Source of the DNA: Deltaproteobacteria bacterium
GTDB taxonomy: Bacteria; UBA10199; 2-02-FULL-50-16; JAJFLM01
Assembly: GCA_021772655.1 (NCBI GenBank)
Contig: JAJFLM010000202.1
Coordinates: 1-43,886 of the forward strand
Direction of reading: 5' to 3'
DNA length: 43,886 nucleotides
Numbering within the stretch: the stretch's first letter is position 1; every line of letters starts with the position of its first letter. The notes below the pieces were generated by a model. It worked only from the letters and a program-made list of their open reading frames with translations. It was not told the origin of the DNA and searched no databases. The position numbers and the translations under genes are program-made. Positions 29,582 to 40,728 of this stretch are shown here, one piece after another.

Positions 29582-29608
29582 GCAACTTTAGCCCTCCCAT
29601 GCCGAAGT
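29582..29608 (+). promoter_or_regulatory. Shared sigma-28-like promoter motif, copy before the methyltransferase
   Basis: GCAACTTTAGCCCTCCCAT-GCCGAAGT, 19 nt before the ATG. Confidence 0.7.
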
Positions 29609-29627
29609 CATCCCGCGGGTAATAATC

Positions 29628-31673
29628 ATGGCATGGTTCCAACTTCAAACAACAAACTTTAGTCTCATGACATCAGCACTCCAGGTTTATGGGCAAGCGC
29701 AACGAGTTGTCACTTCGACTCAAACCTTGGTCGCTGAAGTCAATAGCTTAACATCTGAAGGCACCGCTGCGGTGGCTCTGATTGGACAACCGGGAAGCCT
29801 AAGACATGCTCTATTTATGGCCGCCCAGGGACCCGTTCATCAACTGCGTCGCGAAGTCATTGCTCCCATCAGAGCCCAATGGGAACAGCATCCTTTTCAC
29901 GTGCAAGGGACGCTAACACGGTTCCCTCAACTGAAGCAGCACCCACAGTGGCCTGTTTTATTAGCTTTAGTCAGCAGTCTCACGGATATCAGCCCGGCAG
30001 GATTTCCGCGCATTACCGCACCGGCTTTTCAGCAATTTATTGATCACGTCCCACATTTATTTTCTCAGGGCAATGAACTCATCGGCTGGCTCGACCAATT
30101 GGAAAACATACTCCAACATCAGCAACCTTTTGATGAAAAAGTAACCCAGTCCGTACAACGTGCAAGCAAGGTACTGCGTACCATGATCTTTACTGCCAGT
30201 ATCACAGCGCCCCCTGATCTATGGCTGCTGCGCCAAGTACTGGCCACGTTCAAAGACCTAGATATTTTAGAAAGCATCAACGCTGGAAAACTGATTCATC
30301 CCGTATCTTATGCTGCTCAACATGGTCTGGATGCTAAGCAACTAAAAATTGATTTAGATTTTCTGTATGGACGAGGGTACCTCGATAAAACTCGCTATGA
30401 TTGTTATATAAAAACCTCTGGGCGAGCCGCCGAAGTTTTAGAGAAAGTGGATCACTTACCCTCTCAGTACCGTCGCAATATGACCGAAGAATTACTGCAA
30501 TGGTTCCAAGGCAAGCAAAGTGCTGAACGTCAAAACCTATTACAAAGCTGGTTTCAGCAGCGGCGTTATGATTCAGGGTCTCACTCCGGTTGGATTGCGA
30601 ACATGCGCGATATAGAAGACGGGTACCGCTTAACACCGCTTGTCTTGGCACTGAAAGCCACCCAACAATTAGAAGGTTTACAGCTTGGGCAAATTTTTCG
30701 CCCCACTCATTGGACTCCTGAAATGGCCGAATTATTTGACAGTACAGGACTCACCCATGAGGGTCGACTAACCGCATTAGGGCATCGCATGCTGAGCCGT
30801 GGTAGCGGACCGTTTGGTATTATTGAAACCTATCACCCTTATACCAATCGACACCATGCCTTACTACAGGCTGAGGTCGAAAAACCTCATGTTGTACGAG
30901 CTGCCAATATTGCTGCCAGTCGCGAAGCCAATCGCAAAACCTTCCGTACGGCCGTACAACAGCTCCATAAATTAGACTACCGTCCACGCGTGGTGATTGA
31001 ACATGCCTTAGGCTTAGGCGTTGCCATTCAGGAGTTTGTAAAAGTTTTTGGTGAAGAGGGCATTCAATTTGTGGGAGCTGATTATGAAAACACGGCATTA
31101 GATGGCGCCCGCGCTGTCCATCAAGCCGGTGAACTTCCTGCTAAAATGGATTTTTATCAAGCCGATATTGCCGACCCACAAGCCTTAATAGATCAAATGC
31201 GCGAGGATGGCATCGACCCTCGAGGCGCTGTCATGATTGTCGGCAATGGTTTTCATGAAGCTCGCAAAGATGATGAAGACTTTGTAAAGGTCATCCGCAC
31301 TTATGCTCTCGCCGGCATCATCCCCGTCTTTATCGAAGAGTCTGCGTTGACACCCAAACAACACCGTACAAGTGCTTGGAATACCTACAATAGTGCGTTT
31401 AATTGGGTCCACGAAGTCTCAGGGCAACGGCTCCGTGCTCCCTGGCCCTATGAACCACCGCACCATCGCTTAAGCTGGCAAGAAGCCCTGGAACAAGGTG
31501 GTTATAGCATCATTCACGAACTTTCTGTTAACACGCGGCCCATGCTGCCTTATGCAGCACCCCCGACTCAAAACCCACCGATTAGCCGCATCACTATTGC
31601 TGTTCCTACGGCTGCTCAAGGTGGTCCTAGTCTGACATTAATCACAAATTCTGAAGATACTCCGGCTGCTTAA
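29628..31673 (+). CDS. AprA-related class I SAM methyltransferase-like protein with ~180-aa N-terminal extension
   Basis: HVVRAANIAAS, VIEHALGLG (motif I variant), FVGADYENTAL, QADIADPQAL and GNGFHE resemble AprA-type methyltransferases (recalled by eye); winged-helix-like segment upstream. Confidence 0.65.
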   Translation: MAWFQLQTTNFSLMTSALQVYGQAQRVVTSTQTLVAEVNSLTSEGTAAVALIGQPGSLRHALFMAAQGPVHQLRREVIAPIRAQWEQHPFHVQGTLTRFPQLKQHPQWPVLLALVSSLTDISPAGFPRITAPAFQQFIDHVPHLFSQGNELIGWLDQLENILQHQQPFDEKVTQSVQRASKVLRTMIFTASITAPPDLWLLRQVLATFKDLDILESINAGKLIHPVSYAAQHGLDAKQLKIDLDFLYGRGYLDKTRYDCYIKTSGRAAEVLEKVDHLPSQYRRNMTEELLQWFQGKQSAERQNLLQSWFQQRRYDSGSHSGWIANMRDIEDGYRLTPLVLALKATQQLEGLQLGQIFRPTHWTPEMAELFDSTGLTHEGRLTALGHRMLSRGSGPFGIIETYHPYTNRHHALLQAEVEKPHVVRAANIAASREANRKTFRTAVQQLHKLDYRPRVVIEHALGLGVAIQEFVKVFGEEGIQFVGADYENTALDGARAVHQAGELPAKMDFYQADIADPQALIDQMREDGIDPRGAVMIVGNGFHEARKDDEDFVKVIRTYALAGIIPVFIEESALTPKQHRTSAWNTYNSAFNWVHEVSGQRLRAPWPYEPPHHRLSWQEALEQGGYSIIHELSVNTRPMLPYAAPPTQNPPISRITIAVPTAAQGGPSLTLITNSEDTPAA

Positions 31674-31679
31674 ATAAAT

Positions 31680-39463: not shown

Positions 39464-39534
39464 GTGTTTCCCCCTTCAACAGGTTGTTCTGTTGATCTCA
39501 CATAGCGGATAGAGTCCGTCAAGTATTGCGGGAC

Positions 39535-40692
39535 TTAGCTTCTATTGATGACGTAGAGTTGATGTAATAGGCAATTACGACTCATTAAAAAGTAAGGAAA
39601 ATTAGGCAAGGCACGCACCCATAATTGATTTGCATCACGGATATAATCACCATCTATTTGTACCGGGACTTCAATAGGGCTACTAGCCGTATCGACAAAT
39701 ACATAACGAATCTCTTCACCAACAGCCACCGCCGCTTGAAACTCAAGCGGCATCCGCGTCAACTGTTTGTCAGCAGCCAATAAACCAGGATTGCCTCTTA
39801 GGGCCCGCTTGGCTTGTTGGTTACACTCCGAGTACATCCGAACTAAACTCAACAAACTGCCATGAGGAAGCACCTTAGTGCCTAGACCAGCGAGCGGACG
39901 TCCTGGAAAACCAGTCACTCGATTGGCTAAAGGTGTCCCGTGGTTTAAAACTTCGCGGGCTAAGAATTCTTGTTGATCACCATTCGAGCGCGTCCACTGC
40001 ACCCCAAAATGTTTGGGTTGCAATACCATTCGTCTAAACCCAACCCAATTACGCTTCAAATGAACACTGCGTCCATGGCCCCCTTGAGTATCTTTAAATA
40101 AACCAGCAATAGCTTCACCCGCACTGACGTTATGAGAAAAAATCATCGTCTCTCCGGACCAAGGAAAATGTGCCGCCCCTAAATTGAGTGGGACTTCAAT
40201 AGCCGTCTTTAAATAATCAACGGCCACACGTTCATTCTTGGAGGGAGAACCAATCAACATCCCCAAGTCATTCACACTACCCATCGCAATCGCGCCAATG
40301 CGAATCCCGCCATCAATCATGCGATTGACAACTTGTTCCTCAGGTAAATTAAAAAGATCGGACTGACTTGAAAATAGAAAACTCAACGCACCCTGCATGG
40401 CTTGGCTAATCGTGCCATCACCACCAAAGGCAATCACGTCAAGAGTGTCGCCTGGGCGAGCCGCTCTAAACTGATCAATACGTTCTGCAATACGGCTCAC
40501 TGTGTTTGAAAAAGATACTTCTGTTTCCAAAGCCGGCAAGCTTTCCAGACCTTCAGACTGAGCTAAACTCAGCACACCGCTTGCCATTTGATGAGCCCGC
40601 CCCGCACCTGAAACTGGATTAACTACGGGTAATATTATTGAAGAGGCCGCCAATAGAGTAGGCGACAACATCCCATGCATCAAGACCGTCAT
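39535..40692 (-). CDS. Diacylglycerol/lipid kinase family protein (YegS/DgkB-like), divergent, with short N-terminal extension and insertions
   Basis: VVNPVSG, GGDGT, MGSVNDL, VQIDGD. Confidence 0.85.
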   Translation of the reverse strand: MTVLMHGMLSPTLLAASSIILPVVNPVSGAGRAHQMASGVLSLAQSEGLESLPALETEVSFSNTVSRIAERIDQFRAARPGDTLDVIAFGGDGTISQAMQGALSFLFSSQSDLFNLPEEQVVNRMIDGGIRIGAIAMGSVNDLGMLIGSPSKNERVAVDYLKTAIEVPLNLGAAHFPWSGETMIFSHNVSAGEAIAGLFKDTQGGHGRSVHLKRNWVGFRRMVLQPKHFGVQWTRSNGDQQEFLAREVLNHGTPLANRVTGFPGRPLAGLGTKVLPHGSLLSLVRMYSECNQQAKRALRGNPGLLAADKQLTRMPLEFQAAVAVGEEIRYVFVDTASSPIEVPVQIDGDYIRDANQLWVRALPNFPYFLMSRNCLLHQLYVINRS

Positions 40693-40701
40693 AACAGACT
40701 G

Positions 40702-40728
40702 TCATCGCCGGAGAGGCCATTTTGTTGC
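40702..40728 (-). promoter_or_regulatory. Shared sigma-28-like promoter motif, copy before the lipid kinase
   Basis: GCAACAAAATGGCCTCTCC-GGCGATGA, 9 nt before the ATG. Confidence 0.7.

Follow-up and report, generated by a model that had tools for sequence, protein, structure and literature searches.

A probable type III secretion-coupled sigma-28 regulon of enzymes and orphan proteins that share an N-terminal peptide in a UBA10199 bacterium

The DNA analysed here is a stretch of 43,886 nucleotides (nt), hereafter called the window, that corresponds to contig JAJFLM010000202.1, one of 474 contigs in a metagenome-assembled genome (MAG) of the bacterial phylum UBA10199. Within the window we examined a block at positions 29582..40728, whose six genes (29.6-40.7 kb) lie between hisI on the left and hisF-hisA-hisD (from 40821) on the right. 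Four of these genes, encoding the proline-oxidizing enzyme PutA, a lipid-kinase-like protein, a 525-amino-acid (aa) orphan and a 681-aa protein, each carry their own copy of one promoter in the sigma-28 format, and each product begins with a short peptide free of charged residues. Both features recur together across the assembly, which also encodes a non-flagellar type III secretion system (T3SS) with a FliA-like sigma factor inside its gene cluster. We consider it probable that these genes belong to a T3SS-coupled sigma-28 regulon of ‘late substrates’, in which the block between hisI and hisF would be one cargo island. An earlier note, made from the letters of the block, had proposed a putative effector regulon; that proposal is supported, and none of the refutation tests that we ran went against it.

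The shared promoter is rigidly bipartite, GCAACTTT-n11-sCCGAWR. It stands before the gene for the 681-aa protein (29582..29608, plus strand; GCAACTTT-n11-GCCGAAGT), before putA (35713..35739, minus strand), before the gene for the 525-aa orphan (37341..37367, minus strand) and before the kinase-like gene (40702..40728, minus strand). On a position weight matrix (PWM) trained on 34 sites genome-wide, of which three come from the window (those of putA, the 525-aa gene and the kinase-like gene) and 31 are independent of it, the four sites score 17.6, 23.5, 21.3 and 16.6, respectively; the first was outside the training set. They end 19, 7, 15 and 9 nt ahead of the ATG, and with a distance of 7-15 nt in three of the four, the corresponding mRNAs would be leaderless or nearly so. 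The putA site lies wholly inside the 42-nt spacer behind the 525-aa gene, and therefore even genes arranged in tandem own separate sites. The earlier note had seen a copy of the motif before each of five genes, which holds for these four and not for the fifth, encoding a 392-aa protein. The degenerate look-alike before that gene (37538..37566, plus strand; TTTTAGCAAG...CCGAAAC, or GCAAG-n18-CGAAAC) has 18-nt spacing where the motif demands 16, and the best PWM score upstream is 3.8. The his genes have no conforming site.

The source assembly, designated G000 (3.67 Mb, 93% complete, 46% GC), was scanned on both strands with the PWM, and the reversed, non-complemented sequence served as the control. 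At a score of at least 16 there are 106 sites, compared with 8 in the reversed sequence, and at a score of at least 14 there are 150 compared with 36. Genome-wide enrichment of the motif had been set beforehand as a test of the regulon proposal, and the 106 sites stand ahead of genes whose products predominantly have uncharged N-termini (see below). The spacing is equally constrained. With separations of 14-18 nt allowed within 120 nt upstream of open reading frames (ORFs) that carry the N-terminal peptide, CAAC and CGA are exactly 16 nt apart in 37 of 38 pairs; across the assembly, CAAC-N16-CGAW occurs 359 times, compared with 265, 197, 246 and 214 times for spacings of N14, N15, N17 and N18. 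PMC2859248 gives the Escherichia coli sigma-28 consensus as TAAAGTTT-n11-GCCGATAA. Our motif has the same n11 spacing and the same CGA core in a -10 element that resembles GCCGATAA, but its -35 element is (G/C)CAAC(T/A)T(T/C) rather than TAAAGTTT, the match being confined to the AA..TTT positions.

An ORF of at least 70 aa begins within 160 nt of 94 of the 106 sites. The distance from the end of the -10 hexamer to the start codon is 5-12 nt at 41 of these 94 sites and 6-9 nt at 33, and the start codon is ATG in 37 of 42 short-distance cases. A Shine-Dalgarno-like motif precedes 6 of 42 short-leader genes versus 32 of 43 long-leader genes. From these distances we infer two transcript classes, one leaderless or near-leaderless and the other conventionally leadered.

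The second shared feature is a peptide of approximately 20 residues at the extreme N-terminus, uncharged, composed largely of Ser, Thr, Ala and Leu, and ending in LLASS. We refer to it as the tag. In the block it reads MVYGVMGASASLSLAPLLASA in PutA, MWLSGTQFSTILDSSQLLASS in the 525-aa protein and MTVLMHGMLSPTLLAASS in the kinase-like protein, and the 681-aa protein begins with the variant MAWFQLQTTNFSLMTSALQ, whose counterpart in a related genome (G025) has the canonical TLAASS. The earlier note had described all five proteins as beginning without the basic n-region of a Sec signal. The three proteins with a canonical tag and the 681-aa protein with its variant agree with this; the 392-aa protein begins MIDNYK, with D and K among its first residues, and departs from the tag pattern. 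The observation of a shared promoter and N-terminal segment in the block is thus partly confirmed, for four of the five genes.

For genome-wide counting, ORF calling followed a simple longest-ORF rule, without a gene finder, and the tag was defined as Met, 8-28 residues without K, R, D or E, and then [LMF][LMF]A[SA][STAG], a rule that excludes charge by construction. It is satisfied by 54 ORFs at first or near-first starts (17,845 segments) versus 4 at internal starts (44,422 segments), and one of those 4 is in fact a genuine member for which a false start had been taken upstream. The LLASS-type motif starts anywhere from residue 3 to 25 (median 15.5). All synonymous codons for Leu, Ala and Ser are in use at LLASS, and therefore selection acts on the peptide rather than on DNA or RNA. 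Residues 2-25 of the 54 members comprise 18.8% S, 17.5% L, 15.9% A and 8.1% T, and charged residues (K, R, D and E together) make up 1.3% compared with a background of 20.8%, a difference that arises partly from the construction of the rule. The tag lacks the hallmarks of Sec and lipoprotein signals: no K or R stands ahead of the motif, Ser replaces Cys, and the hydrophobic core is weaker (mean peak hydropathy over 12 residues of 1.39, versus 2.02 for 44 lipoprotein-like N-termini of G000). Being polar, rich in Ser and Thr, poor in charge and placed at the extreme N-terminus, it has the make-up of a T3SS signal.

Promoter and tag are strongly associated. The strict tag is carried by 35 of the 93 distinct ORFs behind sites that score at least 16; in the background, 35 of 1693 ORFs with a length of 250 aa or more carry it. 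A looser measure, at most one charged residue among the first 20, is satisfied by 67 of the 93 (71% when counted per site over 94 site-ORF pairs) against a background of 13%. After the 33 seed-set ORFs were dropped, it still applied to 34 of 60. Only 7 of the 93 have Sec-like N-termini.

The first Pfam domain of regulon proteins often begins 100-350 residues into the chain (phosphofructokinase (PFK) at 163, kinases at 210-246, cyclase at 182, malic enzyme at 240), which gives a recurring layout of tag, linker and enzyme. Such extensions could in principle have been start-codon artefacts, a concern raised with the original proposal. They are not, because the promoter abuts the ATG. In addition, the first approximately 120 residues of PutA are missing from the nearest PutA proteins of about 1000 aa. 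An N-terminal extension is also present in the 11 closest homologs (40-56% identity, 1174-1458 aa), the best of which begins MGFIGAGFQSFSILAPTLASAHNL; the next group (approximately 970-1040 aa, 33-37% identity, e.g. from Planctomycetes and Cyanobacteria) starts at about residue 123 of the G000 protein. Canonical, unextended putA and dgk paralogs, which the earlier note had suggested looking for, do not appear in the assembly, where we found no second Pro_dh gene and no paralog of the kinase-like gene. The missing second PutA fits an enzyme whose sole copy carries the tag better than it fits a repurposed enzyme.

Searches of the whole assembly for a non-Sec export system and a FliA-family sigma factor, both proposed in the earlier note, found the two together. 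G000 holds one FHIPEP (SctV) gene, whose best relative of solved structure is the injectisome protein LcrD (630 bits), followed by FlhA (474 bits). The cluster on the same contig, C57, encodes SctD-like FHA proteins, SctJ, SctL, SctN, SctO, SctQ (FliM/FliN-like), SctR, SctS (read from the sequence), SctT and a FliO-like protein of 112 aa, and SctU is encoded on contig C238. The non-flagellar T3SS core is therefore represented by SctV, U, R, S, T, N, L, O, Q, J and D. We found no match to flagellar rod proteins (PF00460) or flagellin (PF00669) in this 93%-complete assembly, and none to the type VI secretion system (T6SS) sheath protein TssC or to VirB4.

Between SctJ and SctL on C57 lies a gene for a 304-aa sigma factor. 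Its best family is FliA/WhiG, where it scores 136.4 bits on TIGR02479, below the 189.6-bit cut-off, and it is the only FliA-like protein among the eight classified of nine Sigma70_r2 matches. The other seven are RpoD, an RpoS-like protein (on a contig of 31% GC), two RpoH and three extracytoplasmic function (ECF) sigma factors; the ninth match lies on the 38%-GC contig C263. The structural T3SS genes have no PWM site, and a tagged 680-aa gene at the 3ʹ end of the cluster has one (PWM 25.0, 9 nt to the ATG). A promoter on this gene and not on the structural genes appears to match the flagellar ‘late gene’ arrangement.

None of the cluster proteins has a Pfam match to needle or translocon proteins. 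Small genes of the cluster lie at C57:11523-17402. Among them the gene order p103-p179-TPR139 seems to resemble YscE-YscF-YscG, and we take the C-terminus of p179 (...AQVRNFRVS) to be needle-like; SctK-like labels for other small proteins of the cluster are likewise assumed from resemblance. A 165-aa gene overlaps the stop codon of the sigma gene and keeps this position in 18 of 47 related loci. It was considered as an anti-sigma factor of the FlgM type and dropped, its conserved C-terminus (…VQTLVQRTTQ, …LLNTSFQ) presumably being that of an inner-rod protein. The 342-aa gene that follows gives weak matches to FliG_M (E 0.004) and FliG_C (E 0.002).

Conservation of these elements was assessed in a phylum set of 93 genomes, comprising G000 and 92 others, most of which are small (1.1-3.6 Mb, with one of 4.6 Mb). 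An ortholog of the sigma factor is present in 91 of the 93 and in 63 of 63 high-quality genomes, and both genomes without it are 73-78% complete. Because the sigma is nearly universal, no sigma-free relative can serve as a negative control. SctL, SctN and SctO flank the sigma gene in all 23 related loci with full 20-kb flanks. Relatives of the sigma come from MAGs labelled ‘Deltaproteobacteria’ and ‘Myxococcota’ and from isolates labelled UBA10199. The promoter pattern CAACHTY-N13-CGAWR is more frequent than its reversed control in all 93 genomes, at least threefold in 88 (totals 5735 versus 700; medians 59 versus 7). It is this co-occurrence, with a sigma ortholog in 91 and promoter enrichment in all of the 93 genomes, that suggests the pairing of the two.

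The tag is distributed more narrowly. In G025, a genome from the same family as G000 (98% complete, 1% contaminated) that shows the same key features, the LLASS tag is found on orthologs of the kinase-like protein, of a fatty acid synthase (FAS)-like protein and of malic enzyme. In G055, which belongs to another family, promoter-adjacent ORFs begin with other polar peptides or with lipoboxes. A 23-position tag profile gave 13 matches in G000, 2 in G025, 1 in G023 and 3 weak ones elsewhere; since it recovers only 13 of the 56 G000 seeds at E<=0.1, it is underpowered, and the near-blank result in other families is weak evidence.

The content of the regulon was surveyed with Pfam for 93 of 127 candidate genes, the omitted ones having a PWM score below 17 and no tag, being shorter than 100 aa or lying on C116 or C57. 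At a threshold of 1e-6, 63 of the 93 proteins have no family; among non-regulon ORFs of the window, 21 of 25 have one, at thresholds that differ from those of the regulon survey. Members with families include PFK, the E1 component of pyruvate dehydrogenase (PDH-E1), malic enzyme, a PlsC-like acyltransferase, inositol monophosphatase (IMPase), three Ser/Thr kinases of approximately 1000 aa and an adenylate cyclase. A subtilase that has a Sec signal is probably a bystander behind the promoter, as are RibBA and a BioB-like radical-SAM protein.

Two further members are giant enzymes. A single-chain protein of 2456 aa resembling acetyl-CoA carboxylase (ACC; C390:7633-15003, minus strand) combines biotin carboxylase (BC), biotin carboxyl carrier protein (BCCP) and carboxyltransferase (CT) with a C-terminal biotin-protein-ligase domain (aa 2210-2331), and has an uncharged tag and a promoter of PWM 18.7. 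At other places the assembly also contains separate BC, CT and BirA-like genes. A built-in biotin ligase makes sense for an apo-enzyme that matures after unfolding and transfer. The second, a FAS-I-like megasynthase (C5:508-7784, plus strand), runs off the contig and is at least 2425 aa long; it has a FAS1 dehydratase region, MaoC and acyltransferase, and its tag MAIIGVSTSVLGLGNAGLLAST is kept in its G025 ortholog.

We also observed a second island, at C472:5398-21155, which encodes a 1482-aa adenylate/guanylate cyclase with AAA_16, three Ser/Thr kinases of approximately 1000 aa and a metallo-beta-lactamase-fold protein. All five are tagged; three have sites of PWM 20.8-26.2 within 160 nt, and the kinase genes at 10009 and 18135 do not. 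Contig C425 (37 kb) has six or more canonical GCAACTTT-n11-sCCGATAA sites, whose leaders are long (20-137 nt), ahead of genes for large family-less proteins; one of these proteins combines thrombospondin-type-3 repeats with a Sec signal. The regulon may have a branch here that is devoted to the cell surface or to adhesins.

Taken together, these features suggest the following mechanism. The FliA/sigma-28-family factor encoded in the T3SS cluster would direct RNA polymerase to the GCAACTTT-n11-sCCGAWR promoters, of which G000 has about 100, one per gene. At roughly 40% of them only 5-12 nt separate the promoter from the start codon, which would yield leaderless or near-leaderless mRNAs. Most products start with the uncharged Ser/Thr/Ala/Leu peptide of about 20 residues, often followed by a linker of 100-350 residues and then by a catalytic domain, and in the family of G000 this peptide appears to have been sharpened to a consensus ending in LLASS. 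The tag is predicted to remain uncleaved and to address the protein, from its N-terminus, to the export gate of the T3SS. The four products of the block (PutA, the 525-aa orphan and the lipid-kinase-like and 681-aa proteins) would then be co-expressed and exported as cargo, secreted or injected into a target cell.

Several observations weigh against this interpretation. No T3SS secretin was found, the sole secretin of G000 being part of a cluster for GspC-K of a type II secretion system (T2SS); a single secretin is also all that 12 of 52 genomes contain (G000 and 51 relatives that are at least 95% complete), with the number per phylum genome ranging from 1 to 4. The sigma factor falls short of the family cut-off, as noted above. 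The LLASS consensus is confined to the family of G000, and G000 itself is a MAG with an estimated contamination of 7.8%. The regulon includes Sec and lipoprotein genes (7 of 93), the housekeeping-looking RibBA and BioB-like radical-SAM genes, and a site before uvrA, so that the promoter alone is no mark of cargo. Finally, the 93%-complete assembly contains no second copy of the Pro_dh part of PutA, of PDH-E1 or of PFK, and if these proteins were exported, the cell would be without them.

This last point also speaks for the leading rival explanation, in which the regulon is real and the tag is an intracellular mark for localization, assembly or timed proteolysis on late or attack-phase enzymes that the sigma-28-like factor switches on and that work in the cytoplasm of the bacterium itself. 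The tagged proteins do include a coherent carbon-to-lipid set (PFK, PDH-E1, ACC, the FAS-I-like protein, malic enzyme, acyltransferase and lipid kinase), the missing secretin points the same way, and relatives of sigma-28 are reported to run non-secretion programmes elsewhere, such as WhiG in Streptomyces and the late genes of Chlamydia. However, the assembly also contains paralogs of the ACC parts, malic enzyme and IMPase that lack the tag, and the numerous family-less products are fast-evolving, as is typical of effectors; the 525-aa orphan has one distant relative. The sigma gene is embedded in the T3SS cluster throughout the phylum, the tag combines the make-up of a T3SS signal with a linker behind it, and no compartment or protease partner is evident. 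We therefore regard an intracellular tag as rather unlikely, while treating it as the main competitor of T3SS export.

It is improbable that the tag is an atypical signal derived from Sec or lipoprotein signals, with LLAS|S acting like a Cys-less lipobox or an A-x-S site and with periplasm, outer membrane or vesicles as the destination. LLA[SA]S does resemble L-[AS]-[GA]-C, genuine lipoboxes stand at this position in several regulon proteins of G055, and the regulon has bona fide Sec and lipoprotein members. Yet the tag has no basic n-region (the scarcity of charge following in part from the rule) and a weaker hydrophobic core than the lipoprotein signals of the same genome. Moreover, the cargo consists of cytosolic enzymes of up to 2456 aa that depend on ATP, CoA, NAD, FAD, biotin or TPP and would be useless in the periplasm.

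Cargo of contractile injection systems (eCIS or phage-tail-like) also bears N-terminal leaders, and the assembly contains two phage-type sheath matches. Both lie on contigs of 3.3-3.5 kb with 36-40% GC, compared with 46% for the assembly, and have no promoter sites nearby. A sheath occurs in 8 of the 52 high-completeness genomes and is absent from G025, which shares tag and regulon, and no TssC was found, all of which makes this route very unlikely. Chance, or a repeated DNA module such as a duplicated 5ʹ cassette, could be entertained in that short motifs recur and that three window sites helped to train the PWM, but this reading is refuted by the reversed-sequence, spacing and out-of-sample controls, and it also sits badly with the diverse codons and variable position of the tag (residue 3-25) and with enrichment in 93 of 93 genomes.

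If T3SS export is indeed the function of the tag, the closest parallel is the flagellar class-3 regulon, which is governed by FliA and its secreted anti-sigma factor FlgM. The promoter format is the same, with its n11 spacing and CGA core, the best family of the sigma is FliA/WhiG, and in both systems the promoter is placed on late, exported products (export being predicted here) rather than on the export apparatus. In contrast to the flagellar case, G000 has no flagellar rod or flagellin matches and an injectisome-like machine, the -35 element is GCAACTTT instead of TAAAGTTT, approximately 100 targets are mostly enzymes and orphans, and no FlgM-like anti-sigma factor was identified.

The HrpL regulon of Pseudomonas syringae and Erwinia offers a second comparison. 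There, a T3SS-linked ECF sigma factor acts through the hrp box, a bipartite promoter before each scattered effector gene, and the effectors are recognizable by their N-terminal composition. G000 similarly appears to have a dedicated T3SS-linked alternative sigma and one bipartite promoter per scattered gene. It is not a regulon of the HrpL kind, because its sigma is not an ECF factor and belongs to group 3 with a likeness to FliA; many of its transcripts appear leaderless, and its N-termini have a true sequence consensus, LLASS, beyond a bias in composition. Shared N-terminal elements on unrelated protein bodies are also known from the WEK(I/M)xxFF domain of Salmonella SPI-2 and from the class-IB chaperone-binding motif, which are longer homologous domains or are placed after the secretion signal. 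The G000 tag differs from these in being about 20 residues long, uncharged and at the very start, encoded by varied codons and placed at no fixed offset.

The sigma-28 regulon of Chlamydia comprises few genes; it is not known to supply the general effector promoter, nor to mark its products with a consensus N-terminal tag. In Chlamydia, which is non-motile and bears a T3SS, sigma-28 controls late genes, according to 10.1101/322701. As in G000, a sigma-28 factor thus exists alongside an injectisome where there is no flagellum. Further parallels are the needle-less T3SS* of Myxococcus xanthus, whose substrates are described as unknown in PMC12428579 and PMC3459982, and the basal ‘Myxo’ T3SS that lacks a secretin. 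G000 resembles these in having core genes without a dedicated secretin, in its former ‘deltaproteobacterial’ lineage and in the FHA-domain proteins around the cluster, and differs from them in the embedded sigma and the large visible set of candidate substrates; no Tad/Kil secretin was found in G000. A further difference is the presumed presence in G000 of the needle-like trio resembling YscE-F-G and of an inner-rod-like gene, both labels being ours. The G000 machine is poor in secretins and possibly early-branching.

The titles and opening lines of abstracts that were retrieved mention no FliA-type sigma that controls injectisome effectors and no LLASS-type signal, with supplements lying outside this search, and those on UBA10199 include none on a T3SS. 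At that level we found no description of the arrangement in G000.

A bolder reading is that the whole phylum kept the wiring of flagellar class 3 genes, with a sigma-28 factor in the secretion cluster still driving late substrates, once its type III machine was no longer a flagellum. In the family of G000 an LLASS tag would then have been grafted onto entire central-metabolic enzymes, namely PFK, PDH-E1, malic enzyme, the single-chain ACC with its biotin ligase, the FAS-I-like megasynthase, PutA and the lipid kinase, so that a carbon-to-lipid and proline-oxidizing set is injected into a host or prey cell. We offer this only tentatively and hold it to be doubtful in its full form. Were it correct, it would constitute metabolic takeover by translocated enzymes rather than by toxins, from transcripts many of which would be leaderless. 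If the tag is an export signal, as in the main interpretation, T3SS substrates could be read straight from sequence as promoter plus consensus peptide, which T3SS biology has so far lacked; flagellar late-gene control by sigma-28 would be joined to control of injectisome effectors; and a host- or prey-directed lifestyle would be predicted for a phylum known only from metagenomes, with the regulon present in 93 of 93 genomes. The delivered cargo would then include complete metabolic enzymes, some with built-in cofactor-loading domains. Even if the tag proves to be intracellular, a regulon of approximately 100 promoters, largely leaderless, combined with a 20-residue consensus peptide at the start of unrelated proteins would be new.

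The genes of the block differ in how much can be said of them. The 681-aa protein (29628..31673, plus strand; variant N-terminus at aa 1-19, 29628-29684) is weakly methyltransferase-like in its C-terminal half. Its sole Pfam match is to Methyltransf_36 (AprA-MT2-like) at 26.7 bits, just below the 27-bit cut-off, and the label ‘AprA-like’ in the earlier note is therefore unsupported at the family threshold. PutA (31680..35705, minus strand; 1341 aa) unites proline dehydrogenase and P5C dehydrogenase in a layout of tag (aa 1-21, 35705-35643), linker of approximately 100 aa and PutA_N from aa 126. Its domain architecture is supported by Pfam (PutA_N 37.7, Pro_dh 204.6 and Aldedh 448.9 bits), and its scores against full-length NCBIfam equivalogs are under their cut-offs. 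The 525-aa orphan, orf525 (35748..37325, minus strand), has a canonical tag at aa 1-21 (37325-37263) and belongs to no Pfam or NCBIfam family. The lipid-kinase-like protein (39535..40692, minus strand; 385 aa) matches DAGK_cat with 39.4 bits against a cut-off of 23.6, the domain starting at residue 23, and its 18-aa tag (40692-40639) stands directly ahead of the NPxSG nucleotide-binding start; no relative of solved structure was found at E<=0.01.

Two genes of the block stand apart. The 392-aa protein, orf392 (37578..38756, plus strand), is a doubtful member of the regulon in G000 and represents a small family confined to the phylum. The label ‘VirK-like’ that it had been given was not borne out, as it matches no Pfam family even at E<=0.5 and no NCBIfam family. 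A word-index homolog search returned only the protein itself; homologs exist in 4 of the 92 other phylum genomes, and the copies in G052 and G064 have canonical start-abutting sites (PWM 19.4 and 18.6). The cyclophilin-type peptidyl-prolyl isomerase lipoprotein (38858..39463, minus strand; Pro_isomerase Pfam match) is a non-member with neither feature, as the earlier note had recognized: it has an ordinary Sec/lipobox signal, MRIQYKILVMVTLLVAAGAC, a GGGGGA Shine-Dalgarno sequence and an upstream PWM score of -7.8.

The flanking genes are also non-members. On the left, hisI (29030..29446, minus strand) matches PRA-CH in Pfam and NF000768, with a best upstream PWM score of 1.0, and forms the same flank in G025; on the right, hisF (40821..41585, minus strand) scores 387.7 bits on TIGR00735 and has an upstream PWM score of -6.6. 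The his locus of G025 contains, in order, a homolog of the 681-aa protein (44% identity), a different 7.5-kb middle with, among others, genes for a tagged protein of 431 aa and a kinase-like one of 1287 aa, the cyclophilin (70%), the kinase-like gene (39%) and hisF. The 681-aa ortholog there has its TLAASS tag behind a site of PWM 16.0, and the kinase-like ortholog, MVVLGSLSAASLAPVLAAAPHYILPVVNPVAGSG, has one of PWM 22.4 that ends 10 nt before the start. For orf525 we found no convincing match in the 92 other phylum genomes (one 19-bit fragment) and, by word-index search, only itself among 5.8 billion clustered proteins; a single relative of 25% identity, beginning …VMASS…, was found among 1.84 billion representatives. 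A conserved his site with turnover of cargo looks like the behaviour of effector islands.

Other observations concern the assembly and the remainder of the window. Contigs of atypical composition are likely bin contaminants: C263 (119.6 kb, 38% GC), C75 (31% GC), C337 and C278 (57-58% GC), and C114 and C418 (36-40% GC). They carry the extra RpoS-like sigma, ECF sigmas and both phage-sheath matches. A complete T2SS-like cluster at C405:11460-29676 (GspC, a 1000-aa GspD, E, F, G, pseudopilins, GspK and a PilM-like protein) contains the sole secretin of the assembly and lies beside an FHA-domain sigma-54 activator. A search of sequencing runs with the stretch matched only DNA contigs of one biofilm study and listed no RNA run.

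The other genes of the window are ordinary housekeeping genes, including those for PPDK, SMC, UvrA, Mfd, PdxA and SurA. The site before uvrA (15774-18611) scores 18.5 and lies 67 nt upstream of that gene, at approximately 18679-18710 on the minus strand; the N-terminus of UvrA is normal and charged, and the site is either a chance occurrence or marks a housekeeping member of the regulon. Last, one TGA in frame, at 20640-20638, divides a phosphoglucomutase/phosphomannomutase gene (20143-21552, minus strand) into an ORF for domains I-II and another for domains III-IV; it could be a sequencing error, a sign of a pseudogene or a site of read-through.

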